DNA of 63,995 bases, counting the filler, from Hausera hauseri (lineage: Eukaryota): the NCBI GenBank assembly GCA_046269625.1. It is 12 parts of 12 records of this genome, joined end to end, with 100 filler letters (N's around TTAATTAATTAA, not from the genome) between each part and the next. Parts side by side here need not be neighbours in the genome. Positions count along the whole stretch, not along the records: positions 26,071 to 32,965 come from JBJURY010053774.1; 11 more parts are not named here. One strand, 5' to 3'. Position 1 is the stretch's first letter; the number at the start of each line of letters is the position of its first letter. The notes under the pieces are model-generated. The model saw nothing but the letters and a program-made list of their open reading frames with translations. It made no database searches and was not told the DNA's origin. Below are positions 7,676-54,644 of the stretch, piece after piece. Made by a program: the position numbers and the translations under genes.

Positions 7676-7944
7676 GTGGTTCTCACATTAACCCACCCAA
7701 AAGGAAGAAAAATTATTATTATGAAAAAAAAGTTGTTTAAATATTACGTTGTTGTTTTGCCAATAAAGTCAAAATTTTGTTCGCGTTCTTGTGACATTAT
7801 GTTATCTGATTTCGACTCGAATTTTCTTAATGTGTGAGTCTTTTGTAAAAGCTTTTGTGAAAACTTTTTTAATAGAAATTATTAGGATTTTTATGACTAA
7901 TTCCTCCAACCAAAATTTGGATATTTTGAATCTCCTTGTAAAAC

Positions 7945-10900
7945 ATGATCGAAGTGAAAGAAAATTTTAATCAAAACAATTCTGATATCTGTTTGTCGAA
8001 TGATTATGATAACGAACCGAGTGATGACCTAAAAGACGTTGACGTATCGGATGACGTTGCAGACAAAGCATTGTATTTGATCGGTGATGATAAAAGCAAG
8101 TCGCTAACACCGCATTCGTCGAAGGGTGATCGGACGAATGAGGGTAACAACGACGGATACGAGTACGATAGCGATGAAACTGACGAAACCGAGTCGGAGT
8201 CTGAATTTTCTACGGAGGATGATGAAGAATCATCGGATGAAAATGACATAGACCCGTCAAATAGTTCGATAATGGAGGAGCGGTGGAAGCAATTGGAAAA
8301 ATACGGCGTATCTGACGATGGACCACTGTATCATGCGATGGCCACCCCAATCAATCTATCGGCGAACTCATCCAGTGCTCCACCGGGGGACTACCCGCTA
8401 ATGGCGGACGACCCATATCTAATGGGGCTGGGTGGCGGCAACGCATTGAACATGTCCATGCGTCACTTGTCCCAGATCCAGACGAAACAGTCGACGAAAT
8501 GTTCGCTCGATAACGAATACCACATGTTACCGTGTGGTCAGAAAATGCAACAAACCTGTCGATTACCACCGGCCAACATGCATTTTGACTATGCGAAACA
8601 TTCACGTCATTCGATTGGTCCGCCGCAGTCGTTCGGCGACTTGCGTTCGCAATTCCATCTGAACATGATGATGAATGCACAAGCAGCTGCATCGAACGGA
8701 CCAACTGGTGAACTACCGAATCACGACGAATGGCACGGTCCAATCGGTCATCTCCACCATCCGCACCACCACCATCATCATCATCAGGATTTCCGTTGTA
8801 CGTACTGTAACAAATGTTACACCAATCAATCGTCATTACGTAGCCATTTGAAAAAGCACATGAACATCGAAGAAAAGAAATTCAAATGCGACAAATGTTC
8901 GTATTCATCGCAATACCAAAAAAACCTTCTCAAACACATCCACATCAACCATGCGGAAATCAACGCCGACGACCAATGTCGGTGTGATGTTTGCGATCGG
9001 TTTTTTGCCAGTGAATTTCTATTGAAAGATCATTTGAAAATGCACACATCGGACAATACGTACGAATGTGAAAAGTGCGGCAAAAAGCTCAAAACCAAAC
9101 TCAAACTCCGTTACCATGCCGATGTACATAATCCGGAAAAGCCATACATTTGTGATATCGACGGTTGTGATCGGGCATTTCGTACGCCGAAATATTTGAA
9201 AAATCACAAAGATGAATTCCATAAATTACAACCGAAAAAGCATTTCTGTCCGGTGGAAAGTTGTAAATTAGTATTTCAACGAAAAAGCCATTTGAAACGG
9301 CACATGGCCATTCACGATACGGAAAAGAATTACCATTGCCATTGGCCGGATTGTAATCGTTCGTTTCGCACCCAGGAAACGTTGAACGTCCATCTAATTC
9401 GACACACCGGCGAAAAACCATTCAAGTGCGAACTGTGTGAGTACAGTTGTCGACAGAAAGCCTCATTAAATTATCATTGTCGGAATGCACACGCTAAAGA
9501 TTGCGACAAATTGCTGAGTATGATTTCTGCTCATCCAATGGAACCGAAATCCGTCGGAACGAGACCGGTCGGAAGACCGCCGAAAAATCGCTCGGATAAT
9601 TTTATCCGAAAATCAACTGCGAAATTTGAATTGAGTCATGATGAAAACGATAGCCGGTTAGAATCGAAAATTGAATCGGACGTTAATGGAATCATAAATA
9701 ACTTGAATAAAGATCCGACCATCATTGATATATTCAAAAAACCGGCACCGGTTGATGAAGATGATTTATTAAGGAAAGAAATCTTTTTAATTGCCGATGA
9801 TGTTTTGAACAATTCGCCAAGAGATTATGGGGATGTCGACGAATTTACGTTGGAAGAACTCTGTGCTATTGAATTATCAATCAAATCCAAACGAGGACGA
9901 AAAAGAAAAGTGTTAAAAGAATTAGACGCGCTATTAGCTCAAAGTCTGAATGAATTGAACAATGATTATATCGGCGATGACGATGATAATGATGATGGTG
10001 AAGATGACTCAAATTCGTACAAAGAAGACGAAATCGAATCTCAGTCTCCAATCGTTATCAAAAAGCCTCAATACACTCCGTCTCTAATGCACTCCGCTCC
10101 AAACGATCACACAAACACGAATTGCATTTCCACAACAGCAAACAATATTCGTTCATTGTCGACTTTTACCGATATCAATGAGGACGATATCCCTCAGGAA
10201 ATTTTGGGAAATCCACCGAACGAATCCGTAATCGATTCTTCACAATGTACCTCATTAAATTTCAATGCCCATATGAAATCGGTAAAAACTCGGTTGAATT
10301 CATTTGCATCGCTAACTGTTACACCATCAAATCATGGTGTTTCCAGTTTCGATGCGAATTATATCTTAAATAACAATCATTCCTGCGTTTCTGAAGAGCA
10401 GTCCGTTTCTCAAAGCAATTCACCAACATCCGGTCACGTCAAAGTTGAATCAGATGTTATCGATAATATAGATGAAACAAATGACAATATCGACTCCCGT
10501 TCAAGTTCAGTTCAATTGTCTGCTCAGCCCGCAAATCTTACTTGTCATAAAAGAAATATCAGATCTCCCCATACGACGACTACCAATGAATTCGTAACAA
10601 TTGATTCTGCTGACAGAAAAGATATCGCTGATTTCGATCTAAAAAGTCTAGACGATAACCCAATTCAAGGATTCCATAATTTACCGAAACAACTAGAAAA
10701 TCCATTGTCTGCTTTGAACAGTTTAGAGAATCTTAAAATGAACAAAGATCTTTTGGATCAGGTTTTAGAAGATTTAAAAATAATGCAAAATGATGAAGAC
10801 CAACGGCAGAAAACGTTCCTCAGTCCTAGCTCAGCTGCAACGATAAACAACACATTTCGAAATATATCTGAATTGAACTCAGTTCGGCCATCGTGTGTCC

Positions 10901-11421
10901 CACAATCACTTAAAGTCTCAACAAATGAATCTCAAACTCAACCAAAATCGTTAGATTCAAGTCTTTGGTCAGACAGTGGTTACTCATCGGGTCACGACAG
11001 CAGTACGGTTCATAAAGATCCAGTCAATATCAATGGTATTAATCAGTCGAAAATTCCCGATATATCCAAATTACCAACGAGCCCGGCATCAAATGCAGCA
11101 GCCGCGCTAATCGAAAAGACAGCCGCTGCTGCGGAGATGGCGGCGTTATCAGCTAGTGCAGCATTGTTGAATTCCGATCTTTACAATTATCATCAAAATA
11201 TGGGAAGTAATCGAAATTCAAGTTACAGTTCTTATCAAGGTTCAGGATCAGAATTAGCTAATGAATTGACCACAATGAGTAACATTGCCTCCAGTATGTA
11301 TAAAAATGGACTTGAAGATCATATCAGATCTCTCACGGCCTTGGGATCTAAATATATGGAAGGCAATGGATATCAAGGTTTATTTTGTACATCTGTAACA
11401 ATTTTTAAAATATTGATATAG
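7945..11421 (+). CDS. Intronless C2H2 zinc-finger protein (8 fingers), ZFP91/ZNF692-like
   Basis: 1158-aa ORF with acidic N-terminus, His tract and 8 C2H2 fingers (~8795-9492). The last finger HTGEKPFKCELCEYSCRQKASLNYH resembles the ZFP91-family CRQKASLNWH. AT-hook-like GRPPK. An extra 3' exon cannot be excluded. Confidence 0.9.
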   Translation: MIEVKENFNQNNSDICLSNDYDNEPSDDLKDVDVSDDVADKALYLIGDDKSKSLTPHSSKGDRTNEGNNDGYEYDSDETDETESESEFSTEDDEESSDENDIDPSNSSIMEERWKQLEKYGVSDDGPLYHAMATPINLSANSSSAPPGDYPLMADDPYLMGLGGGNALNMSMRHLSQIQTKQSTKCSLDNEYHMLPCGQKMQQTCRLPPANMHFDYAKHSRHSIGPPQSFGDLRSQFHLNMMMNAQAAASNGPTGELPNHDEWHGPIGHLHHPHHHHHHHQDFRCTYCNKCYTNQSSLRSHLKKHMNIEEKKFKCDKCSYSSQYQKNLLKHIHINHAEINADDQCRCDVCDRFFASEFLLKDHLKMHTSDNTYECEKCGKKLKTKLKLRYHADVHNPEKPYICDIDGCDRAFRTPKYLKNHKDEFHKLQPKKHFCPVESCKLVFQRKSHLKRHMAIHDTEKNYHCHWPDCNRSFRTQETLNVHLIRHTGEKPFKCELCEYSCRQKASLNYHCRNAHAKDCDKLLSMISAHPMEPKSVGTRPVGRPPKNRSDNFIRKSTAKFELSHDENDSRLESKIESDVNGIINNLNKDPTIIDIFKKPAPVDEDDLLRKEIFLIADDVLNNSPRDYGDVDEFTLEELCAIELSIKSKRGRKRKVLKELDALLAQSLNELNNDYIGDDDDNDDGEDDSNSYKEDEIESQSPIVIKKPQYTPSLMHSAPNDHTNTNCISTTANNIRSLSTFTDINEDDIPQEILGNPPNESVIDSSQCTSLNFNAHMKSVKTRLNSFASLTVTPSNHGVSSFDANYILNNNHSCVSEEQSVSQSNSPTSGHVKVESDVIDNIDETNDNIDSRSSSVQLSAQPANLTCHKRNIRSPHTTTTNEFVTIDSADRKDIADFDLKSLDDNPIQGFHNLPKQLENPLSALNSLENLKMNKDLLDQVLEDLKIMQNDEDQRQKTFLSPSSAATINNTFRNISELNSVRPSCVPQSLKVSTNESQTQPKSLDSSLWSDSGYSSGHDSSTVHKDPVNINGINQSKIPDISKLPTSPASNAAAALIEKTAAAAEMAALSASAALLNSDLYNYHQNMGSNRNSSYSSYQGSGSELANELTTMSNIASSMYKNGLEDHIRSLTALGSKYMEGNGYQGLFCTSVTIFKILI

Positions 11422-21595: not shown

Positions 21596-21894
21596 CCAAG
21601 AGCAGTTTTCCGTAGTGACTGAGCTCAGTGGAGCTAAATGTGAATTAAGTATAATAGTAATAGTAGTAATAAATTACTTCATAGTANNNNNNNNNNNNNN
21701 NNNNNNNNNNNNNNNNNNNNNNNNNNNNNNTTAATTAATTAANNNNNNNNNNNNNNNNNNNNNNNNNNNNNNNNNNNNNNNNNNNNCGCCGTTGTCGAAT
21801 TAACCAATCAGCATGCGAGACGCCTGTGATTGGTCAATTGGTGCGTGGGTGGACCTCCCCCCCTCCCCCCTTGTTCCAGAACACTCTTTTTTCC

Positions 21895-24116
21895 CATACT
21901 ACCGTCAATTGTTTTATCGACTCTAATTCCATTTTCATCAATCCATCTCTAGCAGCTCGGTGGAAAGCCTCAACGGAGTTCGAAAAATTCTTTAAGCAAA
22001 TTATTGGAACATTAGTTAGCACATTGGAGTGAAGGACACTGGCAATAAGTTTGCTCAACGCTTCGGAACCGTACTTATTATCGAAATTAAATTGACTCAA
22101 ATCTCGTGTGTCAGCAGTTCTTCTGTCACCATGCGTCAGTGCGCCAAGGGATTCTAAACGTTTCGCAACGGTTGCAGCAAATCGCCGTTCTCCTGCGAGA
22201 TCAGTGATAAGAAGAACGTAATGCGGGGGAATTACTTGATTGGATCTATGAGTTCTACCGAATTGCTGAATTGCTTTTTCCGCTGACCACGGCAATTCGA
22301 TAGTTATATGGACTCGTTGGTCTTTGTTCATGAATTTCTCATCTGAATGTAAAGAAATACCGGTACTTGCAGCATCGGATATTATTGCAATACACTTTTG
22401 CTTGTTATTAAATTGATTTTTCTCTTCGATATTAACATCGGCAAGAGATCGTAATACATACTTTACCGAACCCAATCCATAATCCACCAACCGACCTTTA
22501 CGACCAGTTAATTCTGATACTACATTCGGTCCACCGAGTTGACTAATCAGGTCATCAAGGCAATTAACTGGAAGCATATTTCCCAAACATTCAATTTGAT
22601 TCAATAAATTAATTTTCTAACTATCGATGTCAGAATTTCGAATGATCATGTTGTTCATCTGTATATTACAATTAGATAAATTTTGGTATTCTGGTATTGT
22701 TAAAATAGATTTATTTGCTGCGGGATAATGTTTTAGAATTAAATCTCTAAGAATCTCTTTGGCAGTGGAAACAAATCCACTTAGACCATTAGCGTTTTCT
22801 TCATCTTCAGCCATTAGTGCATTTAGTTTTGCTTCACCCGTCGATTGCAACCCGATAACAACCGATTTGTCGTTTCCAATAGACCTATTTGCTAATTCAA
22901 CGCATTTGGAAACTTTTGCCGCAATGCAAAGATGCCTAAAAAAATCCTGATGAGCTCTCCAATATGTCGACTGGAAACTTTTTGCATCATTTAAATTCAA
23001 CTTGTTCTTTCTTTGGGCTTCTGAAAACACATTGTAAATTTTATTCCACAATTCAACGCAACATTTACAGATGTCCTTGAATCGATATCCGTTAATTTGA
23101 ACATCGTCTGTTGCCACTTCAATTATTTCAAAATTCACATCAGTATAATCCAATTGGCGAGCTAAATAAAGACCCTCGGATTTCATTTCTAATGTTAACA
23201 GTTCCATCGCACCAACTCCATGATCTGAGAGAAACTTTTCGAACTCATCAAAATCTGAAAATGCCGTATTGTATCCCCAAAGACCTAAACGAATCATGTA
23301 CTTTAAATGCTTTGGTTCCGATGCACCAGTTGCACTAGCATAAACAACTCTCGCTTGGGGTAGATGTTCCTGCAACGACTGAACGATTCGCGCTGTTTTT
23401 GTTGGATTTATCGTAGAGTTTTTTGCTTTATGGCATTCGTCAAAAACGATTAAGCCGTCGAAATTTTCTCCACACCACGCAAGAATTTGATTCAATCTGC
23501 TATTAAATTCATTATATGCTGGATTGCGTTTTTCACTTATTAATGTTGAATACGTGACGAACAATACGCCATTTTCTTGCTGTATTGTTTCATATCGTTC
23601 CGGCACAGAAAATACGTCGACAATCAGACCGACGTCTTTCAAATCTCGCTCTGCGTCTTTCATCAAACAATTACTAATGGAAACCCAAATGGCCTTCTTC
23701 CTTTCAGAAATAAGATTTTCAAATATTATTCCTGAAATTGTTCGACCTTTACCCACACCGGCACCGTCGCCTATGAAAAATCCTTTTCGACTACAATTCG
23801 GCAGAAATGTTTCGTGAATTTGACATGCGTATACTACGGCTTCTAACTGAACGTTGGATAGGCGACCATCAGAAATGATCCTCTCTGGCATCAGCAGTTG
23901 GTAATGTATATCTGGTGCTTGTTTAATTGATAATGACTTTGACTCGACAACTTTATAGGGGTGAGGTCGGCCAAGAGTAAATTTTGATGGAACGTACTCT
24001 TGAAATGCGTCGTTTAATTCTGTTTTGGTCAAATCAGCATCTGATTCAAATATCCATTGCCAGTCTTGTTTCTGGAGAACCTTTCTTTCCTGCTGTTGTT
24101 TATTTTCATTTGACAA
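21895..24116 (-). pseudogene. SBNO: Strawberry notch homologue, intronless, with nonsense stop and 3' truncation
   Basis: [70 protein letters not shown]. Both ORFs are in the same frame, split by one TAG (22617-22619). Homology ends near 21900. Confidence 0.93.
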
Positions 24117-25004
24117 AAAGCCTTGATGATTTATAATTTGATGATAATTCGCATTGTATTGGTTAGCAGTCTTGAAGTTTGGATAATTATTTTAAATATT
24201 TGATTATTTGAATTAGAAATTAGGAATATGGTTACAGTTTGGGGTGGCCCTTACCTTCTCCCACTATAACAATATTATCATCAATTTAGAGTTTGCTACT
24301 GGAGCAGATTAGGATTACTCAATCTCGAGTAATCGGTTTGTGCCTTATTAATTTTAAAAGAATTTAATTGTCTTGCTGGTACTGTATGCGATAATGAATG
24401 CCTCAATTTACTAATTCTTGTCTTAACTATATGAGTTTACTCTTGATTTTAACCTTAGGGTAGTACAAATCAGCCTTAAGGGCCGATGGAAAACTATATA
24501 AGGATTTTAGAACAAATTAAATAAATAACCTTTATTGATACACCAACTAACAATCAGTTGCAATCAGATACGCTTGTATAATGTCAGTAAGTAATTCAGA
24601 TGAATATCGTCAAAATCAATTTGGTAATTTGCTGGGTTGTTCGACTCTAAGTCGTACACTGAACTGTTTCTCAATACTGTATTAATTCGATCTCGTTTCA
24701 CTGTGAAACTAATCGTGAGAGTTCGTTCACTGTTAATTTAGTTCGAATAGATTGATGCGATACTAAGTCGCAAGAGTTGTTCGGTTATTCTGTTTCCATA
24801 CTGTATATATACTATTGGACTGGACTAATTATGTACAATTCTAATCAATTCCTTTATTTCTCATCGGTGAATACTAGATAATAATCAAATCTACTTTTTA
24901 ATTTATACAACTGTTCCTTCACATGGTAATTTTATTTAGTCAGATTAATATACAATTGTTTATTCTCATTCACAGTTATACTCGACTCTCGACTGCTGAC
25001 TATT

Positions 25005-26070: not shown

Positions 26071-27210
26071 TCCTCTGTCCTCCCCTCTGTTGGGAGCTGC
26101 TGGTGACCAATCAGGACGGATGGGCTCCGTCATGGTGGCCGCAGTGCACATGGCCGGGCGGGGAGATGGAGAGGGTGCGGCAGAAGATGCAGGTGAAGCT
26201 GGGTGTGGTGGAGAGAGGTGAGAGGCCTCGTCCAGTTCATCCTCTGTCTCCACAGCCTGGTCCCGTTGTTCTGGAGGGGAGGAGGGGTGAGCAAGAGGGG
26301 CAGGAGCCGAGTCGGAGGAGGACGCAGACGATGAAGAGGACGATGGTGAAGCTGTCTTCTTCTCCCTCGTCACCAGGTACGTCTGTGCGTCCTCTGCGGT
26401 CCCCAGATCAAATCTCCTGCCCAGATTGCGCTTAGCCCACTTGATGGCAACCTCCAGAGGAGCTTGGAGGTCACCACCAAAGCCAAGCAGCACCCGCTTC
26501 TCAGCTGCACGCACCTCTGCATAATGGTCCCTCAGAATGGTGATGGTGGTGAAGCCCCAGTTCTTAGCGTTGCCCTCAATTAAACTGAGGGTTTTGTTGC
26601 TAGGGTGGGCAGGCTTGATGGTGGTGGCCAAATCAGAGGTGATCCGCTGTATGGCTGGCGGGTAGCGGTCACCTCTCGACACATTTTTAAGGTGGTGTGT
26701 CGCTTTAAGCAGCCTGTACATGGCCCTGACCTTTTCAGTGAAGTCCGGGTCATCAGACTGCTGGTGGTTGTCGTGGCTGGATCCCGCGTTCCGCCTCCAG
26801 GGACCGTTCCTCGGCTGCCACTGTTGTTGCCGCCTTTGTCCACCCCTCTGCTGCTGCCGCTGCTGCCGCGGCTGCTGTCGCTGTCCACCTCTGTGTGGTG
26901 CTGAATTCCCGTTCCTCCAGCTGCGGGAGCGGGGGCGGGGGCGAGGCTGTCGGTAGGACCGAGATCGGTCCTGCGGTGGACCGAAGCTCCTGCTGCGGCC
27001 AGATGGGCGGCCGCGGGTCACGGAGGCATAAGTCGGTCTCCGGTGCTGCGGTGGAGGACCCCAGTAGCTTGGTGCGCCCCTGTGCGTGTAGTGGTCTCGG
27101 TACGCTGGCTGCCAGGGGCGCTGGCTCTCGGGCTGCCGGGTCCGTTGTCTGCCTCCGCGGCGCCGAACCGTGGTCCAGTCCTCCCAGTCTTGGTCTCGGT
27201 CCCACGCCAT
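26071..27210 (-). CDS. ORF1 of the downstream tandem copy (partial)
   Basis: Close paralogue of the N-terminal half of ORF 32771-30612, open until the contig end. Confidence 0.9.
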
Positions 27211-27393
27211 TAAGATCCAAGATCCAGGAAAAACTATTAAAACTATCTAATAACTAAAAACTGACTGTAAAACAATCTGCTGTATTATTAAAAAATAATA
27301 AAATAATAAAAAAATAATAAAAAAGAGAATATGAAAACCGAACTGTTTTTAAATGCCGTCAGGCACTTTAATGACGAACATGAGAACAGCAAA

Positions 27394-27437
27394 CAAAAGC
27401 AACGTTTCGGTTCTAGTCAACCTTCCTCAGGCCTTTG
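27394..27437 (-). ncRNA. Minimal type I hammerhead ribozyme
   Basis: Minus strand CAAAGGC-CTGAGGA-A-GGTT(GACTAG)AACC-GAA-ACGT-T^GCTTTTG. Stem I CAAAGGC/GCTTTTG, core CUGANGA...GAAA, 4-bp stem II, palindromic ACGT stem III, as typical of Penelope pLTRs. Confidence 0.88.
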
Positions 27438-27464
27438 CCGTCTCAACTAAACAGATCGGTTGAA

Positions 27465-27580
27465 AAGTGACTATATACAGCAGAGAAAATTCAAATTTCG
27501 AACTCAAACATCCTTTAAACAGTCAGCGGGCTCTGATTGGCCCATCAGGAACAGGTGTGAGCGTCATAAACAGGAAGTAG
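27465..27580 (-). promoter_or_regulatory. Putative pLTR promoter
   Basis: TATATA at ~27472-27477, about 35 nt upstream of the hammerhead; CCAATCAGAG at 27531-27540; ETS-like CAGGAAGT at 27571. Confidence 0.5.
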
Positions 27581-28392
27581 GGAGGAGCGAAGAAGAAGAA
27601 CAGAGGTTGCGCTGCCTCCCCCTTCTGTCAGAACTGAAAATTACAATTTAAATCAAAATAATCCGGTAAATGTATTTACAGAAATAGAAACATAACTGTA
27701 CAGGCAAATTGTAATATACAATATATACAGTATTCACCAAAATACATTATTTACAGATATTTACAATATACATGGCTTTGAATGGCCTTTATAATGGTAT
27801 CAAAATATATATTATATACACTTTATTTACAAAAATAGCTTTAGTGATGCACAGTGTCTAGTTTTCTAATTAATTTATTATTATCATTACTAATTAGGGG
27901 AAAATTAGGTTAGGGTTAGGCAAGAAATCCTGTGAGGTTAGGGTAAGTGCAACATATCAGGGCAAGGACATACAATGGGATATTTAAAACAAACCACAAG
28001 CTGGGAGTAAGAAATTAGGATTAGGCAATAATAACAAAATATCCGGGTCAAAGAGCAATGTTGGCTGAACCACAGGTGGAGGACAGAGGCCTCTAGAAGG
28101 AGAATCAAGATGTGATGGTAAGTAATTTTGAATATTTATTAACTCAGTGTTTTTCTTTCTTTTGACAGGAGCTGGAATCCCTCCCAGGTCATCAGAGAAG
28201 ACAGGCCGCACGGGACAAACCACGGCACGAGGCACTGGCCAGTTAGGATCAGAGTTTGGGTAGGAGAAGGGTGAGGTTCAAGGTGAGGGATCAGAGGTCC
28301 AAGAAATTGAACCCCATTCTCCCCTCCTCTTACCTTCTTCCCCCCTCCAGGTTTGCACGGGCACATCATGCCAGGAGCATCCCATGCGGAGC

Positions 28393-30834
28393 CTATCTCA
28401 CATTCAGACCTCTGGGAATGAATGTGTCCAGCTTCTGGATCCACAATCCTTCAGCCCTTCTCCTCTGGGCTGAAGACCATGCTGGGTTGCATTCCAGCAC
28501 CAGTGCTGAAACAGAATCCCAGCCATGGCATGTAAAGTGCTTCACTAGGGGCAGATGTGTTTTCTTTTGTTTTAGAATGTTGTGTCTATGTTGGGCGAAA
28601 CGGGTGAGGATGCTGTTACCCGTCTCGCCCACATAATTGACTTTACAGATCCGGCAAGTAATTAAATAAACACAATTTTTTGATTTGGGGTTTCCTGATT
28701 GATCTAATTTGAAAATTGTGTTATTAAATTTGTTCTGCACCCAGTGAAGCTGCTTAAAGAACCCACTCTGACCTTTGACCTTTGGTGTTTTTAAAGGTCT
28801 CACCTCAGCTCGGACGAGGAAATCCCTCAGGTTTTTATTTCTTTTGTAGGCCGCAATTATTTTATGGTTTGGAAGCAAAGCAGTGTCGGATTGGAATTTA
28901 GTAAAATTGTTTTTGATATTATATACAAATTTTCCGGCTGAGGAGGAGAATGTAGTTATCAGAGGGAGTAAGGGAGATACATCGAGGGGTCTGGACTCAA
29001 GGAAGTTCTTCCTGCATGCTCTCAGGAATGATCTGGAATATCCTCTCTTACCAAGAGCAGAAAACAGAGTGCTAGTTGCTTCCTCAAAATCTGTTTTCTG
29101 TGTGCAAATCCTATGAAATCTGAGGAGCTGTGATTTAATTAGGCCGGCATATGTATGCCTGGGATGATAGCTAGTTTTAAATAGAAGAGCATGTGTGTCT
29201 GTGGGTTTAAAATATACTTTAATATCCAATTTATGTGTTGTGTCAAAATTTACTCCTTTATAAGTGTGAGTGTCCAGGAAGTCGACCGCTTTAACGCTGG
29301 TGCTGGACTTCACTGTAATCGATGGGTTATGTGTGTTCAAGTGCTGGAGGAATTCCTGGAATTCAGCTTCAGAATGGGTCCAGACCCCCCAGATGTCATC
29401 CAGATACCGGAAGTAGTGCAGAGGTTTTTTCCGGCACGTACTCAGGGCACCTTCTTCCCAGTTTGCCATAAAAATATTTGCATAGGCCGGTGCGAACTTT
29501 TTGCCCATTGCTGTGCCTTTAATCTGAAGAAAAAACTCCTCGTTGAAAACAAAGTCGTTTCTCCTCAGATTAATCTCCAACAGCTGGATGAGTTCTCGAT
29601 CTGGCCTCCTCGAATCTGGATATTTCAAAAAGATGTTTTTAATACAGCCAATTCCTTCATCTATATCAATATTTGTATACAAACTGTCTATGTCAATTGT
29701 GAATAAAATAGAGTCCTGGGGTAGACAAATTGATTTGATCTTATCCACAAAATCATATGTGTCTTTAATATAGCTTTTATGCAGGATAGATAAAGGATAT
29801 AAATAGTGATCAATAAACTCTGCTGTGTGGTAAGTTTCACTCCCACAGTCTGACACAATCGGTCGGCCGGGGGGAATTTCAAATTTCTTTGACCAGGCGC
29901 TGGGCTCCTTGTGGATTTTGGGGAGGAGATAGAACCTCCTGGCCCTGGGTTCAGAGGAGCCGCGCAGGTAAGATTTCTGTTTTGCATTAATGAATTTCTT
30001 TTTATGTAGATCGTTTAGAATTTTGTTTACTAGAGGGATTGTGTCTAAATAAATGGGAGTGTCCAATTTTTTATAATATGTTTCATTATGTAACTGTTTA
30101 TATCCCTCCCACAGGTACTGCTCCCTGTCCAAGATGACAATGGAGCTGCCCTTGTCAGCAGGTTTGATCACTATATTATTATTATTAATTAGTTCTTTTA
30201 AGGCTTTAGTTTCTGCTATTGTTAGATTCGGTATGGTTTTAATAAGTTTGAAATCATTATCAAAATATTTTAGATCCTTAGAAATCAATTTGTCCACCTC
30301 AGAAGGGAGAGAGGTGATTGGAGGAGCCCAGTCGGATTCTGGCATAAAAGGTAAGTTGTTATTGTTGTTGCCAACCTCATCTTTATAATAAATAGCCAGT
30401 TTGATCCTTCTGTGGTATTTTTGTAAATCAAACCTCATCTGCATCTTGATTTCCTTAGGTTTATTACCGCCCTCAGAGGGGATGAAAGTGAGGCCCCTGT
30501 TTAAAAGGGAGCACTGTGCATCACTAAGAATAAATGTTTTGGAAAGATTACATACATTATTATTTACAATATGAGCATGCCCCTCCTGTCCAGGCAGGCT
30601 TCCGGGGGCCGCTAGTTTAACCACTGGCTCCAATGGCTGAACATGCGAGCCGCAGTAGCCTTGGACCAGTGAACGTTGTCCCCATTCACTGTGAAGGCCC
30701 GCCTCTCCAGTGCTGGGATGAAGCGGCTCAGCTGTGAGATGTTTATGTTCATGTGCGTGAGGGTCACCTGTTGTTCCTGGGGTAATGCCGGTGAGAAATT
30801 CACCGCAGGGACAAAAATCTCTGCATTCGGGCAT
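28393..30834 (-). CDS. Penelope-like reverse transcriptase with GIY-YIG endonuclease (intact)
   Basis: VCNLS..LS....LLNRGLTFIP, KPADKG, LPKIHK, GRPIVS, DIDSLYTNI, GTAMG..FAP.YAN, RYLDD, and endonuclease CVYLITC..C...YVGET...RF.QH...HF...E..WI..L.T..P.GLN. Conserved homology starts near 30560. Confidence 0.96.
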   Translation of the reverse strand: MPECRDFCPCGEFLTGITPGTTGDPHAHEHKHLTAEPLHPSTGEAGLHSEWGQRSLVQGYCGSHVQPLEPVVKLAAPGSLPGQEGHAHIVNNNVCNLSKTFILSDAQCSLLNRGLTFIPSEGGNKPKEIKMQMRFDLQKYHRRIKLAIYYKDEVGNNNNNLPFMPESDWAPPITSLPSEVDKLISKDLKYFDNDFKLIKTIPNLTIAETKALKELINNNNIVIKPADKGSSIVILDREQYLWEGYKQLHNETYYKKLDTPIYLDTIPLVNKILNDLHKKKFINAKQKSYLRGSSEPRARRFYLLPKIHKEPSAWSKKFEIPPGRPIVSDCGSETYHTAEFIDHYLYPLSILHKSYIKDTYDFVDKIKSICLPQDSILFTIDIDSLYTNIDIDEGIGCIKNIFLKYPDSRRPDRELIQLLEINLRRNDFVFNEEFFLQIKGTAMGKKFAPAYANIFMANWEEGALSTCRKKPLHYFRYLDDIWGVWTHSEAEFQEFLQHLNTHNPSITVKSSTSVKAVDFLDTHTYKGVNFDTTHKLDIKVYFKPTDTHALLFKTSYHPRHTYAGLIKSQLLRFHRICTQKTDFEEATSTLFSALGKRGYSRSFLRACRKNFLESRPLDVSPLLPLITTFSSSAGKFVYNIKNNFTKFQSDTALLPNHKIIAAYKRNKNLRDFLVRAEVRPLKTPKVKGQSGFFKQLHWVQNKFNNTIFKLDQSGNPKSKNCVYLITCRICKVNYVGETGNSILTRFAQHRHNILKQKKTHLPLVKHFTCHGWDSVSALVLECNPAWSSAQRRRAEGLWIQKLDTFIPRGLNVR
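30579..30621 (-). promoter_or_regulatory. Candidate -1 programmed ribosomal frameshift signal (ORF1 to RT)
   Basis: G_TTA_AAC directly before the ORF1 TAG, a 5-nt spacer, then GCCCC-cggaag-CCTG-cctgga-CAGG-a-GGGGC stem-loop. The RT ORF is in the -1 frame. Confidence 0.7.
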
Positions 30835-32771
30835 TTTACCCCAGCTGCCCTCAGCGCCGCTCTCATCTCTGTGACCACAGACTTTTTGTCCCTCTGGGTC
30901 CTGTGGTTGATGCCCACAGAGATGATCAGCCTCTCAACGTGCTCCATCACTGGCGCCTTGCTGAAGAGGCTGGTGATGTGCCTCCACTTTGCGCCAGGGA
31001 AGCTGTCCACCTGCAGATCTGGGTTAGTCCAGTCAGGCAACTTTGCCACATTAGAGTCCCCCAGAATAATAAATTTTTTATTTAAGTTGAGGGACCAGTG
31101 GCGTGTTTTGTTATGGAATCCCACCTGTCTGGCTGCAACAGTTACCTTACTTGCAGGTGGAAGCGTGGAGGAGACCGGGGTTGGAGCAGATGACCTTGCT
31201 CCAGCTTTGAAGGTCAGACGTCGTTGTGTGCTGACAGCCAATCTGCGCTGGAGGGGAGCCAACCTAGGTCTCAGCAAGTACCTCGTCTCAGCCTGTGTGG
31301 AGTCAGAGGTCTGGGCTTGTGGAGGAGGTGCTGCAGCTGGAGCCCGGTATTTGTTGATTTCCTCCTGGAGGAGTTCAGAGATGATGCTGATTTCCTCATC
31401 CGTGGCAGAAGCTGCTGCCACAGTAGGCTGGAGAGAAGGAGGAGACATCGGGGGAGGAGGAGAAGAGGTCCTCGACGCTGCCGGGCTGGAGCTGTCTATC
31501 TCCACCAGAGAGCTCGATGGTCTCCTCTGGCGTCGAGGGAGGGGGGCTGCCACCTCAGGACTTGTTGGAGGAGGAGCAGGGGGGGTCATTGTTCCTCTGT
31601 CCTCCCCTCTGTTGGGAGCTGCTGGTGACCAATCAGGACGGATGGGCTCCGTCATGGTGGCCGCAGTGCTCATGACAGGGCGGGGAGATGGAGAGGGTGC
31701 GGCAGAAGATGCAGGTGAAGCTGGGTGTGGTGGAGAGAGGTGAGAGGACTCGTCCAGTTCATCCTCTGTCTCCACAGCCTGGTCCCGTTGTTCTGGAGGG
31801 GAGGAGGGGTGAGCAAGGGGGGCAGGAGCCAAGTCGGAGGAGGACGCAGACGATGAAGAGGACGATGGTGAAGCTGTCTTCTTCTCCCTCGTCACCAGGT
31901 ATGTCTGTGCATCCTCCGCGGTCCCCATGTCGAACCTCCTGCCCAGATTACGCTTAGCCCACTTGATGGCAACCTCCAGTGGAGCTTGGAGGTCACCACC
32001 AAGACCTAACAGCACCCGCTTCTCGGCTGCACGCACCTCAGCATAATGGTCCTGCAGAATGGTGATAGTGGTGAAGGCCCAGTTCTTAGCGTTACCCTCA
32101 ATTAAGTTGAGGGTTTTATTGCTAGGGTGGGCAGGCTTGATGGTGGTGGCTAAGTTGTCGGTGATCCGCTGTATGGCTGGCGGATATCGATCACCTCTCG
32201 ACACGTTCTTAAGGTGGTGTGTCGCTTTTAGCAGTCTGTACATGGCCCTGACCTTTTCAGTGAAGTCCGGGTCATCAGACTGTTGGTGGTCGTGGCGGCT
32301 GGATCCATCATTCCGGTCCCAGGGACCAGTCCGCTGTTGCCACCGCTGCTGCCGTTGTTGTTGTTGTTGCCGCGGCCGCCACTGCTGGCGCTGCGCCTGC
32401 TGCTGTCGTTGCTGGCGCTGCCGCGGCTGCTGCTGCTGCCGTCGCTGTCCACCTCCGCGTGGTGCTGAACTATAGTTCCAGCTTCGAGAGCGGGGGCGGG
32501 GGCGAGGCTGTCGGTAGGAACGAGATCGGTTCTGCGGTGGACCGAAGCTCCTGCTGCGGTCAGATGGGCGGCCGCGGGTCACGGAGGCATAAGTCGGTCT
32601 CCGGTGCTGCGGTGGAGGGCCCCAGTACCTTGGTGCGCCCCTGTGCGGGTAGCGGTCCCGGTCCGCTGGATGCCAGGGGCGTCGGCTCTCTGGCTGCCGG
32701 GTCCGTTGTCTGCCTCCGCGACGCCGAACAGTGGTCCAGTCCTCCCAGTCTCGGTCTCTATCCCACGCCAT
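30612..32771 (-). CDS. ORF1: R/Q-rich N-terminus, helical domain, P/S linker, C-terminal SGNH/GDSL hydrolase
   Basis: 719 aa. All four SGNH blocks are present: ILGDSN (I), FPGA (II), VGINH (III), DNVHW (V). Confidence 0.9.
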   Translation of the reverse strand: MAWDRDRDWEDWTTVRRRGGRQRTRQPESRRPWHPADRDRYPHRGAPRYWGPPPQHRRPTYASVTRGRPSDRSRSFGPPQNRSRSYRQPRPRPRSRSWNYSSAPRGGGQRRQQQQPRQRQQRQQQAQRQQWRPRQQQQQRQQRWQQRTGPWDRNDGSSRHDHQQSDDPDFTEKVRAMYRLLKATHHLKNVSRGDRYPPAIQRITDNLATTIKPAHPSNKTLNLIEGNAKNWAFTTITILQDHYAEVRAAEKRVLLGLGGDLQAPLEVAIKWAKRNLGRRFDMGTAEDAQTYLVTREKKTASPSSSSSSASSSDLAPAPLAHPSSPPEQRDQAVETEDELDESSHLSPPHPASPASSAAPSPSPRPVMSTAATMTEPIRPDWSPAAPNRGEDRGTMTPPAPPPTSPEVAAPLPRRQRRPSSSLVEIDSSSPAASRTSSPPPPMSPPSLQPTVAAASATDEEISIISELLQEEINKYRAPAAAPPPQAQTSDSTQAETRYLLRPRLAPLQRRLAVSTQRRLTFKAGARSSAPTPVSSTLPPASKVTVAARQVGFHNKTRHWSLNLNKKFIILGDSNVAKLPDWTNPDLQVDSFPGAKWRHITSLFSKAPVMEHVERLIISVGINHRTQRDKKSVVTEMRAALRAAGVKCPNAEIFVPAVNFSPALPQEQQVTLTHMNINISQLSRFIPALERRAFTVNGDNVHWSKATAARMFSHWSQWLN

Positions 32772-33299
32772 TTGGATCCGAGATAAAGCTAATAAAGCTA
32801 ATAAAAATATCTATTAAATAAAAGCTGACTGTAAAAAACTCTGCTGTCTTAGTAATTAAAAAGTAAAAAATAATAATAAAAAATAATAAAAGAGAGGAAA
32901 ACCGAACTGTTTTTAAATGCCGTCAGGCACTTTAATGACGAACATGAGAACAGCAAACAAAAGCANNNNNNNNNNNNNNNNNNNNNNNNNNNNNNNNNNN
33001 NNNNNNNNNTTAATTAATTAANNNNNNNNNNNNNNNNNNNNNNNNNNNNNNNNNNNNNNNNNNNNCGCATATTACGACAATATAACAAAATAAGCTAAAT
33101 TGAGTGAGTGAATTAGTCCTAAAGCACGGTAGGTTAAGTTGAGAATTTAATGCACCATGTTTGTCGTAACATATTAAGAATTGCTCATTCGTTGGTTGAA
33201 ACGAATAATTGATTCAAATTATATCGAAAAATGTATGACATGGTGCATCAGTTCTCTTTTCTAGGATTGACTTGATTCATGATTGTATTGGATTTGCAG

Positions 33300-36200
33300 A
33301 AGTTTCGTTTGTGAATTGACGATATACTGTGCAAAATTGAAACGAAATATTACTGCTCGAGAAGCCGGTTCGAATAAGCAGTCGGCATCTAAAGCCTGTG
33401 CAACATCGCTTGTTCGACAGTTGTTCCATTTGGGAGTTATTGAAAAATCGGGAACGCAATTAAAGAAGCCTAAGTCCACGGAGGTATTATTTTAATGTTT
33501 AATTTAGAACGTAGCAGCTATCCGTAAGTCGGCACAATTAGTTAGTATTTTATTGTGAAACTGCTGCCAAATAAAAGTCAATGTCACCCGTAGGCTTATC
33601 ATAGATTATAAGTCTATGTAAGTTTGTTGAAACAGAATATTTAAAAATCGTTTGTTTGAAATGAGACGTCACATTTTATTCTAGATCCCTCCTTTCAAAG
33701 TTACTTTGAATGAGGAATTCCGACAGAATCTTCTTGATACTGTTTCACATCTCGGTCTTCCATTAGCTGAAAAGCCTGATCCATCAAATGCAGAAGAATC
33801 TAATTTGATAGTCAATTACACAATAGTCGATTTTGAGCCACAGAGCCACCATCGTCCGCAAGTCATCCCGTGGTCTCCACCGATGCAGAATTGGAATCCG
33901 TGGATTGCATGTAACATCGACGAAGGAGACGAAGTTTATAAGAATATACTTTTCATTAAATTTATCCGGTTTTCAGGCTTTTATGTCGTTGAGAGATATC
34001 AGTGATCGAATGCGACAGACATTCACACAGAAACTATCATCGGATGTTTCATTACAGAAAATGTTGAGCGAGAGAAAATTATTGCCGGCTGCAGTTAGTG
34101 AAAACGATGTTGTCCAAGCAGTAGTATCTAGTCAAATTGTTTTGATTCGCGGTGAAACGGGTAGTGGGAAAACGACACAAGTGCCACAATATATTCTCGA
34201 TTCTTTCATTCGGTCCAACAGAGGAGCTGAATGTAACATAATTGTCACTCAACCACGCAGAATCTCCGCGATAACACTGGCTGAAAGAGTTTCCAGCGAA
34301 CGTTGTGAGATACTTGGCGATTCTTGTGGTTATTCCGTCAGGTTCGATACCGTTTTACCACGCCCATATGGTGGAATTCTTTATTGTACTGTCGGATCTT
34401 TGTTACGGAAAATGGAAGGGGGTCTCAGAGGGGTTTCACACGTTATTATCGATGAAATCCACGAACGAGATTGCAATACGGATTTTCTAATGATCCTGTT
34501 GAAAGATATGGCAATGGCATATTCACAATTGAAAATTATTTTGATGAGTGCCACTATTGATGTCGAAATGTTCAAAAACTTCTTTCCTTCAGTTTACGTT
34601 CTTGAAATTGAAGGTCGAACACATCCTGTCAGCTGTAATTAATGTTTTGTAAAGGATCAGGTCAAGTGGTTTTCCATAGATTATTTCCTCGAGGATGCTA
34701 TTGAAATGTTGAATTATCAGCCCGATGATTCAGTGAAAAAGAAAAAATCGAAAAATGACGACGGAGATCAGGAAAGTACTGTTGGTGATGCTGATGAGCT
34801 CGATGTAGATTGCAATAAGATTTGTGATAATTCGTATAAGCCGGCGACTAGAATGGCGATGGCAAAGATGTCTGAACGGGAAATACCTCTTGATTTGATT
34901 GAATCGATATTAGGGTGAGTGAACAATGTCGTATTTTTGAATACTGTTCATTTAAGAGTAATGTTCATTTCTTATTACTGTCTCATTTTTCTAGCAAGTA
35001 ATGTTTATTATTGAAAAAAATTCAGGTATATTGACAAAATTGACCCAGACGGCGCTGTTTTGGTGTTTCTTCCTGGATGGAATATAATTCAAATGTTATG
35101 GAAACAGTTGTCAAAACATCCAGTCTATGGTACCCAGCGCTATTTAATCCTACCGTTGCATTCTCAAATCACTCGAGAAGATCAACGGAAAGTATTCTAT
35201 CCGCCCAGAAGCGGTGTACGGAAAATCATCCTGTCAACAAATATCGCCGAAAGTAGTATAACGATCAACGACGTCATGTTTGTCATTGATTCATGTCGCG
35301 CAAAAATCAAAACATTCACATCACGTAACAATCTGACGAGTTACAACACGGTTTGGGCATCGAAAACGAATTTAGAACAACGACGAGGTCGTGCCGGTCG
35401 AGTTCGGGAAGGGTATGCATTTCATCTGTGCAGCCGGAATCGATTTGATCGATTGGAGACTCATCAGATTCCGGAAATGCTTCGAACTCCTCTCCACGAG
35501 TTGTTACTGATGATTAAATTACTTCGACTGGGTGATTGTCAGACATTCTTATCGAAGGCCCTTCAGCAACCGCCGATAGATGCCATAATAGACGCCGAAT
35601 ATTTACTGAAGGAAATGAAGGCGTTCGACAAGAACGACGAATTGACGCCGTTGGGGAAAATTCTAGCTCGACTTCCCATTGAACCACGAATGGGTAAAAT
35701 GCTTATATTCAGTTGTGCATTCGGTGTGTCGTATGCCTGTTCGCTGATCGCAGCATGTACGTCATTCGGTGAACCATTCGTCATGCCGCCGGACAGGAAA
35801 CGGTTGAGTAGAGTTCAAGTGGATTTTGCGTGCAATCGTCATTCGGACCACGTTGCAATGTTGAACGCATTTCAGAAATGGAACGGCATCAAACACCGTG
35901 GAGAGGACGTCGAACATTCGTTCTGTGAAAACAAAGGTCTCAGTTTATCGGCACTGAAAACGTCCAGTGAGGCTGCGTCGCAAATTCGTTCGATTCTCGT
36001 CAATTCGGGATTTCCCGAGGATTGTATGTATTCACAGAATTACGATTTCTTCACGGACAATTCATCAATTGACGTCATTGTCACTCTGCTGGTTCTCGGT
36101 CTCTATCCGAATGTTTGTTATCACAAAGAAAAAAGGAAAGTTCTTACAACGGAAGGCAAACCGGCGCTTGTCCACAAATCGTCCGTCAACTGTAACAATT

Positions 36201-37111
36201 TCATCAACACTTTCCCATTGCCGTTTTTTATATTCGGAGAGAAAATTCGTACACGCGCAATTTCCTGTAAACAAATGTCGATGGTAAATCCGTTGCAGTT
36301 GTTGTTGCTCGGTGCCAGGAAGGTGACATTTGTCGAGGAGAAAATTGTCGTTGACGATTGGTTGACTCTCGATATGGATTTTGAGGCGGCTGTCCACATT
36401 TTGGCGTTAAAGCCGGCAATGGAAGGTTTGCTTGTCAAGGCGTGTTTGAATCCTGAAATGGTGATGAATCCTGATGAGAATGACCAAAAAATAATAAACA
36501 TCGTCACGCAGTTGAGTTCGGATGCGGCGTGTATTTACGAATCTGCGAATATCGACTCGACGAACTCATCGAAACGGAAATTTCCTTTTGCCGGTGAACG
36601 TCCGACGCTAGCGAGTGGGTTTGGTGGTCTTAATAAGTATCCCAGAACGAGTAGAGGGGATTTTAGAGGGTCTCGTGGTTATGGATATGGGCAGCAATTT
36701 CGGCAAAATAGTTACGACAATGCGCCAAGAGATTTTCCGTTGAGACCACCGGGATCTCAGAATAGACAACCATTTCGTACTCCAATGGGACGTCCTTCTC
36801 CATTAGGTCAGGGAATGTCGAATTACGGTCAAGGACCTTCACGTTTCCCTTATCCTGGAATGTTGGGTGTGGGTTCAGAGGCCCAGGATAATAGTTGGCG
36901 ACAATCTCAGGACAGTTACAATGATGGGAACGGGTATGGGGAACGAGATGCAGCGACATATGGAGGCTATAATAATCAAGAATATAAGAGAGAAGGGGAT
37001 TACAAGAATAATGATGAATATGGACAACAGCAGTATGTGGATTCATTTGCGAACAGACCGCGATATCCAATGCAACAAAATTCGTCGCAGAGCTACCGTA
37101 TGGACTCTTAA
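33300..37111 (+). CDS. DHX9: ATP-dependent RNA helicase A (DHX9/Maleless), spliced, 5' exons missing
   Basis: Exons ~33300-33483, 33685-33933, 33977-34634, 34680-34914, 35026-37111, joined in frame by GT-AG introns of 201, 43, 45 and 111 nt. dsRBD2 ([28 protein letters not shown]), [31 protein letters not shown]-rich tail. Confidence 0.95.
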
Positions 37112-41275: not shown

Positions 41276-43113
41276 TGGTTAATCAACTTGCTGACGATAA
41301 TGATGCTAATAAAGCAGATAGGAGCAGTCACCATATACGACTGTGTCAAATTCAAGGTGGGTCAGAAATATTCCTTAAAGAACTTGGAAACATGTGAGGA
41401 TGCGAGACCCCATAAGCTTGAGACAATGTAAAAAAATAAATACTATATCAACAGCGCGAATAAATAACAATGGATGCAGTGTAATGCATGATATGGTGAT
41501 CCCGCAGAATATTTCATTGTGGTAATATGCACGTCCCTTCTTCAATAATCAAACCAACCACACCATTAATTCCAATGAACGTGGACTGTCAACACTGTTT
41601 AGGAACCCGGATAACCGATAAAATGGTTTGGGACTGCATGGAATAAGAAGCCCAAGAAGGAAAGATAATTAGAGCTTACAAAGTGGCAGTAGGAAAATTA
41701 AACATGCGCACCGGTGACTGCGTCGGAGTGGAATATAACATTGGAAAAGAAAAAGAAAGGGTAGTAGTCGTAGATTTTTATGAAACCGAGTTAAGATCCC
41801 TAAAAGCAATGTTCCTTAGTGTTACCAAATTATTTATTAAAAATCAAAAATGTCTCATTCAAGATGGTGCTTGTACGTTCCGAAGTTCAGTTATTGTATG
41901 GAGCCCACCTTCCAACAGAGATTGTAATTTCATCAAAATTAAAGAGTTAAAGTTCAACAAGACCACCGGAAAACGTTATCCAAATAAATTACACACCAAT
42001 ACCAGATCAAGGGAAGACGTAATAGAACACCCCACACGAACGATATTGATATAAGATACGCAAGGGTTAAAGTTTATTAGAAAAAATATGTTAACACGTT
42101 GTGATGTAGTTATGTATGCCACTAACTACGAAGCGTTTTTTGTAGCAGAAACGGAAATCGACAAAAAAGATATGATTTGAAAACACAAGATGTGCGGATC
42201 GAGGATTACCTCAAAAATCAAGACGACAATTTCTATTATAAAGGACAGACCGAAATAGCAGAGCTATACGACAAGTTGAAAACAAATAACTGCAGATTAG
42301 GTACTGAAGTCATGAGAACCAAACTGGTTTTGATTTATGCCAACCCAGAATTGGTATCACCAATTATACCAATAAAAGAAGGTGTCTTCGGGCGAGTTAC
42401 CGGCGATGTCCTATTAACTTACGAATGCGAAAAAGAGACGTGCCGATAAATGTAGAAGAAAAAAGATGCGTGCAACAATTACTGGTCATTTATGAGAATA
42501 TGCCAAAGCTAGCGATGCCCCTCACAAGAGTATTACTGGTAAACTTGACCGAACCAACGATATTGAAGGAATGTAAAAGGAGCTTAGGTAAACCCATGTT
42601 CCAACGCAGTGGAACCGACTGGATAAGTTTACCTAATGGAGACGCAGCTGCAGCCCCTAGTAAGCTAACTGGGACAAATCTAGTCAAAGGATTATTAGAG
42701 GAAAAGTTCGAGGACACGGCCAATAAAGGAATTTATAGACCAAAAGATATAGAAGCTTTTAGGCAATTCTTAGCATTTCCACGACAGCGAACTTATAAAC
42801 TGAATCGGGCTATGTCAATGGTCATGGACGACACCCGCTTTCAAGCGAAATAGGAGTCGCTGCTCGGCGCTAATGACTATCAAAGAGTAACTTCAGAGAT
42901 ATTGTATAAGATTTGGGAAAGATTTTTGATTTTTGGACAAGCTGCATATGGATTTCTAGCTATTTACTTTTAATTCATTTAATTAAGGCAGTAATCCAAG
43001 CCATTATAAACGTATATGAAATATTCACATTAACAGGATTTTCCTGCAAAATTTTGACTGCAATTATTACGCCCTTTGGAAAGATACTTAAGGTCTACAA
43101 ACAAAATGGATGA
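41276..43113 (+). pseudogene. Chuvirus-like (gB-related class III) envelope glycoprotein, decayed
   Basis: Signal peptide WLINLLTIMMLIKQIGA followed by VTIYDC; FHCG; CLIQDGACT...IVW; C....YATNY; G...GDVLLTYEC; C...L.V.Y; PLTRVL; GIYRPKDIEAFRQFLAFP; C-terminal TM then TGFSCKILTAI. Recognised from the motif and Cys pattern only. Confidence 0.78.
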
Positions 43114-52900: not shown

Positions 52901-53990
52901 TTCTGCTTGGCTGGCGAAACACTCCATCTACTTTTACAGGATGCTCACCTACTAAAGTTTTATTCGGAGCTTCTGTCCGCTCATTATTCGAACTAACCGC
53001 CCTAGACAACACTCCCACAGATGAGACGATACGGGTGACGCAAAATCACTTCGTCGAGGTCAGCAAAGATTCGTTCTGCAGGCTACTCCACAAAGACAGA
53101 ACATACTTACCCGAAGATTTGTATTCGGCAAAATTCGTATGGCTAAAGAATCAAGCGCCTTTGGGTTTCCAGCCATGGTACCTGGAAACCTATAAACTGA
53201 TACAGCTGCACTTACACAACGCCATTATCTCTAAAGATGGCAAAGAACTTGCAGTACATATTACCAACTTAAAGCCTGCTTTCTTCGTCGACGACACCGT
53301 ACCAGCTGACACACCAACCTTTTCTCATTCCTACGCTACCTGCTATCCCTATATCTATTGCTACATCTGTTCTACATTCCCCTTCTGCTCTTAATCCTGC
53401 GCCATCATTTTCTACACTTTCCACTTTTATTCCTACCACTCTCTGTTTCATCTTCCTTTTCCACTCTTTCACTCAACACAATTCAAATCTCTACTCCAAC
53501 CTTTTCCTCTCTTCCTTTATCCACCAGTACACCTTTCCTCACTCCTTCGTCTTATAACACTCTTTTCAACGCCTTTAACCAGCCATCTTTAACAATCCCC
53601 TTTTCCTTCTTCGGCCTCTTCTTCTCTTTATTCCGACTCATTTTCGCACGACAACACCTACACCAAAATCTACTAATTTTTCCCCAACCTCAATCTGTGC
53701 AAACAAACACATCGCATAAAGACACAGCACGCAGAGTCACATTCAGCAAGTATAGCAGGAAAAAATCAGTTGAAGGTACCCAACGTTTTATTCACACTAA
53801 GCTCAACTAACACAGACACTTTTCGTTATGCGAGTTTTTCTCTCTGTCCTTTTACTCTTCATAGTTTTAACTTTGCCACGGGGGCGTGATGTGGTGCCCA
53901 CAGCGGCCGGAGCCCTCTGGCCCATTCGGTTGGGCACGGCCGAGCGTCCGTTGGCCCCGATTTTCTGCCTCTTTTGTAAACTGTGTACAT
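49967..53990 (+). mobile_element. Decayed Ty3/Gypsy element copy A (gag end, PR, RT, RH, IN, PPT, partial 3' LTR)
   Basis: LIDTG (~50175), W.SPLHVV, DAYPLP, MPFGLRN, YIDD (~51355), TDAS, HIDIVGP, WPEA. PPT GGGGGCGTGA, then LTR start TGTGGTGCCC at 53890. Confidence 0.95.
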
Positions 53991-54168
53991 CGCTCCTCTT
54001 CCACAACAATTACCTCCTGCTCAAACAGCAATCTCCTCTCATCCGTATGACTCGATGCATCACGTCAACATGATCCAGAAAATACCCTATCAATCAAATC
54101 AAAATTTTTAACTATCCGCACCAAATTACATCAACAACGTCCAATACTTATCTCAACCACATCCTAAT

Positions 54169-54375
54169 ATGCCACGGTTTCCACAAACCATGATGAATAC
54201 TCCAGAAGCAGCTCAAATCCAGTCTCGTCGCTGTCTTCAGATTATCCATCACCACCAAGGCATGCACGATGGCAGAAAATTGACGAAATCATCACGGCAA
54301 TCATTGCAAGCATTGGTATGATCGGCAATATATTCGGTCTGTACATCATTTGTAAAATACAAGCATATAATAGCA
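54169..54375 (+). pseudogene. Possible class A GPCR N-terminus/TM1 fragment
   Basis: Ser-rich stretch followed by IITAIIASIGMIGNIFGLYII (GxxGN TM1 motif). Cut by the contig end; upstream in-frame stop. Confidence 0.4.

Positions 54376-54583: not shown

Positions 54584-54586
<3 letters not shown>

Positions 54587-54641
<55 letters not shown>
54587..54641 (+). repeat. (CT)n microsatellite
   Basis: About 27 uninterrupted CT units. Confidence 0.95.

Positions 54642-54644
<3 letters not shown>

Follow-up and report, generated by a model that had tools for sequence, protein, structure and literature searches.

Canonical Penelope-like elements (PLEs) bearing an endonuclease have been described as single-ORF elements (PMC8557442, in the part covered here), and some Neptune-like elements, from fish and molluscs, have been noted to carry an esterase (PMC5408684 and PMC3905857, in the parts covered). 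The esterase-bearing Neptune clade, as presented in the covered parts of PMC5408684, PMC3905857 and PMC12602865, shares with the element reported here a reverse transcriptase (RT) followed by a GIY-YIG endonuclease with a CCHH motif, a partial tandem, a minimal hammerhead ribozyme and an upstream ORF with an SGNH esterase, and those same parts do not describe how the RT would be expressed from behind the esterase ORF1. For the Neptune element of Fundulus reported in 2025, ORF2 was annotated from an internal Met, and the word frameshift is absent from the text covered (PMC12602865). Moreover, the Fig. 1 legends of Craig et al. 2021 (PMC8557442) and of its preprint, the portions considered here, mention for PLEs an 'ORF1 separated by a frameshift with a pseudoknot', which implies an ORF1 joined to the RT by a frameshift as proposed for the element studied here; the legend gives neither clade nor heptamer, and the figure may already mark Neptune. 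The frameshift proposed in the initial annotation of this DNA was therefore not new to PLEs as such, whereas no description of its heptamer was found. The elements meant by that legend are presumably the endonuclease-less Athena/Terminon ones with a coiled-coil ORF1, from which the present element would differ in having an endonuclease and an esterase ORF1, with no pseudoknot enrichment. A literature search combining Penelope with slippery or programmed frameshifting gave no match, and in the literature covered the heptamer and its breadth appeared undescribed; an earlier description elsewhere, for example in the Athena and Terminon literature or in Repbase, is possible. As far as these searches reach, the mechanism is known and already mentioned for the Penelope-like class, and undocumented for endonuclease- and esterase-bearing elements.

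Outside PLEs, retroviral gag-pol is expressed through frameshifts, with the polymerase in the -1 frame as in the present element. The ORF1a/1b slip sites of arteriviruses are GUUAAAC in equine arteritis virus (EAV) and UUUAAAC in PRRSV and LDV (PMC3835772, Table 1), the same two heptamers as those found here, likewise with the polymerase in the -1 frame and with the 5-nt spacer of the window; the table, which is the part of that source considered, lists GUUAAAC with a 5-nt spacer and so agrees with the earlier attribution of G_UUA_AAC to EAV. In contrast, the structures at the viral sites are strong pseudoknots (for EAV, Table 1 gives values above 40), compared with -15 kcal/mol for the stem-loop of the window and less in many relatives. 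The likeness to arteriviruses is a convergence; a viral origin of the signal was considered and rejected, as a 7-mer cannot show origin. A further comparison is offered by the ORF1p of ZfL2-1, a CR1/L2-type element and thus of a different retroelement class (PDB 4c1b; PMC3905857), which has an Arg-rich N-terminus, a middle domain and a homologous C-terminal esterase, matched with an E-value of 1e-9 by a profile of 30 relatives; the word frameshift is absent from the covered part of that paper.

The window, that is, the whole stretch of 63,995 nucleotides analysed from the Hausera hauseri assembly GCA_046269625.1, consists of short contigs chained by N runs plus a fixed linker. According to self-BLAST and translation, its contig at 26071-32965 (JBJURY010053774.1) is retroelement throughout, on the minus strand, with the following features:

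30612..32771, minus strand: ORF1, 719 aa, from ATG 32771 to TAG 30614-30612 (translation)
31872..32276, minus strand: middle domain of ORF1, about 135 aa (phmmer)
30615..31139, minus strand: SGNH/GDSL esterase domain, last 175 residues of ORF1 (profile, model, alignment)
30832..30834, minus strand: in-frame ATG in the overlap, which would yield 813 aa (not conserved)
30615..30621, minus strand: slippery heptamer G_UUA_AAC, Leu-Asn codons of the ORF1 frame (sequence, conservation)
30612..30614, minus strand: ORF1 stop TAG, right after the heptamer (sequence)
30579..30609, minus strand: predicted stem-loop, candidate stimulator, outer stem GCCCC/GGGGC and inner stem CCUG/CAGG (fold)
28393..30615, minus strand: RT-GIY-YIG frame entered after a -1 slip, 740 aa (translation, Pfam)
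about 29727-29332, minus strand: RT core, YLDD intact
about 28677-28426, minus strand: GIY-YIG domain (Pfam)
27211..28392, minus strand: non-coding spacer of about 1.2 kb, comprising 3' UTR, pseudo-LTR and 5' UTR of the next copy
27401..27430, minus strand: predicted minimal hammerhead ribozyme motif, CUGAGGA, helix II, GAAA and palindromic ACGU (motif scan)
26071..27210, minus strand: second ORF1 copy in tandem, 5' part, ended by the contig end (self-BLAST, translation)

Judged by its sequence, the element is an intact Neptune-type PLE. The RT translation contains the motifs RGLTFIP, PADKG and YLDD, including the PLE-type N-terminal GxxFxP and DKG, and the frame is matched by Pfam RVT_1 and, at its C-terminus, by the GIY-YIG family PF01541 (residues 753-836, above the cut-off), with a CxxC and two His forming the CCHH motif. 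The partial-tandem or pseudo-LTR layout typical of PLEs was also found, as the second ORF1 copy is 88% identical to the first (self-BLAST) and the part of the spacer at 27401-27211 recurs upstream of ORF1, together with the candidate hammerhead. An Rfam search of the element returned nothing meaningful and did not report the hammerhead motif (27430-27401), a minimal type known from fish PLEs (PMC4209133, in the part covered). On the minus strand of 27211-27540, CCAAT-like and TATA-like motifs were seen by eye immediately upstream of the hammerhead, followed, before the ORF1 ATG, by a long pyrimidine tract that contains possible splice acceptor sites, which suggests a promoter and a 5' UTR intron like those of Penelope.

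ORF1 comprises, in this order, an Arg/Gln-rich N-terminus, a conserved middle domain, a Pro/Ser-rich linker and the C-terminal esterase. No part of it, including the middle domain and the esterase, was matched by Pfam, and phmmer found the middle domain in many ORF1s of related loci (about 25 loci among the matches listed). The esterase carries the motifs GDS, G-x-N and D-x-x-H (GDSN, PG, GIN and DNVH in the window), and its predicted model, with a pLDDT of 95, had SGNH hydrolases as structural matches; sequence and model agree that this domain is of the SGNH esterase fold. Its last helix finishes at the slip site. Furthermore, using a profile built from 27 of them, an esterase was found at the ORF1 end, at the junction, in 55 of 56 scorable ORF1s, window included.

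The relatives came from a metagenome scan in which 467 stretches encoding RT were found and 75 loci were returned, with RT identities of 35-60%. Eight of these were set aside for having the RT N-terminus unmatched or off the contig, as were L042 and L073, in which the RT match starts upstream of the called stop and neither of which fits the pattern, leaving 65 usable loci that were clustered at 70% RT identity into 52 non-redundant relatives. The viral contigs searched contained no relative of the element.

Regarding the reading frames, the 3' end of ORF1 reads TGG TTA AAC TAG on the minus strand, and the RT-endonuclease frame, uninterrupted between 30933 and 28393, is the -1 frame relative to ORF1, so translation confirmed what had been annotated. 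After the heptamer the RT frame reads LAAPGS...NVCNLSKTF...RGLTFIP, and the predicted fusion has 719+740 = 1459 aa, in line with the roughly 1460-aa ORF1-esterase-RT-endonuclease protein initially anticipated, its esterase being supported by profile and model. An assembly error as the cause of the frame offset was rejected because contigs of several runs bridge the junction gap-free: those from five of eight runs (X1, X3, X5, X7 and X8) cross it without gap and with 0-3 differing letters, at least one of these runs being possibly the window's own source, and short contigs of X10 and X11 cross it unchanged, with X12 having no coverage there. Moreover, a frame relation that is not conserved had been named as a ground for refutation, and the relation held: in each of the 50 relatives for which 900 nt or more of upstream DNA was available, an ORF of 351 or more codons overlaps the RT and is placed so that a -1 shift leads from it into the RT; in none of these 50 does either of the other two frames hold an ORF of 200 codons.

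The heptamer was found to be conserved in the homologues, as the initial annotation had asked to be verified. A strict X_XXY_YYZ in frame and within 48 nt of the ORF1 stop occurs in 47 of the 52 relatives, and the remaining five have G_UUA_AAC as in the window (4/52) or G_GUA_AAC (1/52). Within 6 nt of the stop, the counts were 43/52 for the strict pattern and 47/52 when the G form was included, where the frequency in ORF1 bodies would give a chance per locus of 0.7% and 3.3%, respectively. As controls, RT stops had a strict heptamer in 2 of 47 cases, and the shifted frames in 0 of 53 at each offset. Among the types, U_UUA_AAC was the most frequent (32), followed by A_AAA_AAC (5) and U_UUU_UUA (4), the last two replacing the main form in separate branches of the tree. 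Since the elements are related, these counts are not independent events, the tree spanning long branches. Furthermore, the terminal Leu-Asn pair is encoded with TTA in 40 of 42 cases, against 256 of 2,091 Leu codons (12%) in ORF1 bodies; a constraint on Leu-Asn at the protein level was rejected by this bias, which argues for selection on the nucleotides rather than on the protein. On the RT side, 32 of the 33 proteins of the close fish-type group that reach far enough upstream, among the 120 listed, have xK[LH], which stands 35-43 residues before the conserved RT motif, and 25 of these 32 read VKL or FKL, the -1 reading of G/T TTA AAC T. The slip efficiency of the window's own heptamer is uncertain because of the imperfect G at its first position. 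In the nearest metagenome relative (L001 1882-1891), G_GUA_AAC is accompanied by the same downstream stem-loop as in the window. In the branch of L012, L014, L022 and L066, the heptamer lies in U-rich runs and precedes the ORF1 stop by up to 33-48 nt, therefore leaving a short ORF1 tail beyond the slip site.

On these grounds, the RT is very probably made by a programmed -1 ribosomal frameshift at G_UUA_AAC, and three other routes were weighed against it. The RT could start alone, from ATG 30834, from ATG 30444, from a non-AUG codon or by reinitiation past the ORF1 stop, with the heptamer being incidental. ATG 30834 belongs to the RT frame and has an A at -3, and the internal-Met annotation of the Fundulus ORF2 (PMC12602865, in part) would fit such a start. 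It is also the sole Met before the conserved RT motif, the next one, at 30444, lying downstream of the motif, so the annotated absence of any other Met was accurate, with the motif itself reading RGL.F.P instead of the KGL given. However, a start at 30444 would lose the conserved motif, and ATG 30834, named in the initial annotation as a start that would speak against the frameshift, is not conserved: among the 40 scorable elements (of 53, the other 13 being unmatched by the pattern), a Met upstream of the slip site was found in only two, one between the slip site and the conserved [KR]GxxFxP in five, and none before that motif in 34. Some of those five could start the RT independently, as their sequences would allow. 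For the family, an own start of the RT would leave unexplained both the strict frame relation (50/50) and the TTA usage, and we regard it as improbable.

An RT translated from spliced RNA, with ORF1 either removed or fused in frame through an acceptor close to the junction, was judged slightly less probable still. Introns are retained in PLEs (PMC8557442, in the part covered), the TAG of the window could act as a splice acceptor, and the pike gene model P0121 links the ORF1 end to the RT. Nevertheless, P0121 is a predicted model that also skips about 30 esterase residues, and a search for naturally fused longer proteins gave 11 matches of which one was an ORF1-RT gene model, which is weak evidence. 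For the splicing route, also named at the outset as a refuting outcome, no AG was seen at a fixed distance past the heptamer: the first AG lies at 22 different distances among the 52 relatives and at +3 in only 13, and the ORF1 stops themselves vary (27 TAA, 18 TAG and 8 TGA). Splicing would moreover leave unexplained the conservation of the heptamer and the swaps among slippery types.

The heptamer abuts the ORF1 stop in 34 of the 52 relatives, half of the family has little 3' structure and some relatives have A7 or U7 runs, all of which would suit a shift in which the RNA polymerase slips, or in which a single tRNA slips at the stop, instead of tandem ribosomal slippage with a 3' structure. 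Transcriptional slippage requires long runs, and runs do not exceed 3 in the most frequent forms, U_UUA_AAC and G_UUA_AAC, both of which suit tandem re-pairing; in addition, the stop stands 3-6 nt from the heptamer in 13 of the 52. This was considered the least probable of the three.

As for what would stimulate the ribosomal frameshift, the predicted stem-loop begins 5 nt past the heptamer and has a folding energy of -14.7 kcal/mol, the minimum-energy fold carrying the pairing into the spacer. The position and the stem of the GC-rich structure first annotated were thus found, but not a stability beyond that of dinucleotide shuffles (z of 0.10 to 0.85); against synonymous shuffles, z was -0.9. 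Across 53 elements, the 42 nt past the heptamer had a mean z of -0.9 against synonymous shuffles, compared with about 0 in five control windows. By group, the mean z was -1.7 for nine elements including the window and -1.36 for the 18 of clade B, and the other half of the tree (26 elements) was barely enriched (mean z of -0.31, p 0.04).

Covariation of the hairpin, proposed as a check, was hinted at only near the window, where L001 and L002 retain its stem pairs (26 of 27 cells paired, with three two-sided changes), a score matched by 39 of 500 shuffles with n = 3 sequences; for the 18 clade B elements, RNAalifold on an ungapped alignment gave no consensus structure. A bulged-A hairpin in some clade B rows was 63.5% paired versus 51.3% in shuffles (reached by 0 of 500), and it is weighed lightly because it was read off the same rows later used for scoring. 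The downstream region was not alignable by MAFFT across the wider clade of the window, and by eye L004, L021 and L024 have a G-run/C-run stem where the window has a C-run/G-run one. A permissive and not discriminating pseudoknot scan found no enrichment (39/53 versus 28-42/53 in controls). A stem-loop probably helps slippage in the window's half of the family, and the ORF1 stop beside the heptamer is another candidate for a stimulator.

The frames, the heptamer, its conservation and the domains of the element are direct observations; from them we infer that slippage would occur and would set a gag-pol-like ratio. Most ribosomes would terminate at 30614 and release free ORF1p, while a minority, presumably held up by the stop codon next to the heptamer and, in the subclade of the window, also by the stem-loop 5 nt downstream, would slip back one base on G_UUA_AAC as tRNA-Leu and tRNA-Asn re-pair one base back, reading on to 28393. 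The product would be a minority 1459-aa ORF1-esterase-RT-endonuclease fusion. By analogy with the ORF1p of ZfL2-1 (PMC3905857, in the part covered), the surplus ORF1p would use its Arg-rich N-terminus to bind RNA and its esterase to bind membranes, and RT and endonuclease would enter the ORF1p assembly as part of the fusion, at a fixed low ratio. More tentatively, and with rather less than an even chance of being right, esterase-bearing Neptune-type elements may all be gag-pol-like. Their -1 frameshift sites would then make up an old and extensive eukaryotic family, not described before, which arrived by convergence at the nidovirus heptamer U/G_UUA_AAC, set directly at the ORF1 stop, and half of which would work with scant or absent 3' structure; the free esterase ORF1p would be a Gag analogue assembling on membranes and carrying a fixed minority of RT fusion, and the RT proteins of this group in databases would systematically be without their true N-terminus. 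If true, a broad branch makes its RT only as a minority fusion to the esterase ORF1, which would change the choice of protein for transposition or biochemical assays and would call for correcting internal-Met annotations. Moreover, dozens of natural slip sites, many with an adjacent stop and weak 3' structure, would allow testing whether termination alone stimulates -1 slippage.

The nearest named RT relatives of the element are teleost, with 70% identity in Nothobranchius and 61% in Oryzias, and the tie to the Neptune of Fundulus is a likeness of the primers given in the covered part of PMC12602865 to the window sequence. Unlike the Neptune clade, of which the Cys-rich CX2-5CxxC linker between RT and endonuclease is a trait, the window element is without this linker, as are the nearest loci (L001-L004, L013, L018, L021, L023 and L024), most other relatives having it. 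The element is therefore named Neptune-type and not a typical Neptune member. In a tree built by a quick method, with no named Neptune reference in it, the window element falls among linker-bearing relatives, and the absence of the linker in its subclade is read, from these sequences, as a secondary loss.

Several loci deviated from the common organization. The long-branch relative L065 (2460-2570) has an ORF1 without esterase and retains the -1 overlap, U_UUU_UUA and a strong GC hairpin. In L073 (1270-1420), an upstream ORF of 440 codons with no terminal esterase is continuous with the RT frame except for an in-frame TGA, after which comes a GC-rich stretch; this makes the locus a candidate for stop readthrough or a rearranged copy, and in L042 (4835-5010) a run of telomeric repeats interrupts the 5' end of the RT.

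The contig of the element (26071-32965) has a G+C content above that of the neighbouring contigs, whose genes are AT-rich with short introns, and near-identical DNA, with at least half of the words shared, was present in nine runs bearing nine different organism labels. The contig may stem from a fish whose DNA was co-assembled with that of another organism, or the element may have spread horizontally. Elsewhere in the window, 7942-11421 contains a C2H2 zinc-finger ORF, and Strawberry-notch-like helicase pieces and a DEAH-box RNA helicase gene were found at 21834-24191 (minus strand) and 33827-37111 (plus strand). An ORF at 42308-42853 (plus strand) weakly matches the Pfam family Monjiviricetes_fusion, with an E-value of 9e-6 that does not reach the cut-off of the family, and the three contigs at 50302-63696 hold decayed LTR-retrotransposon-like copies with RT, RNase H and integrase fragments, 65-85% alike.
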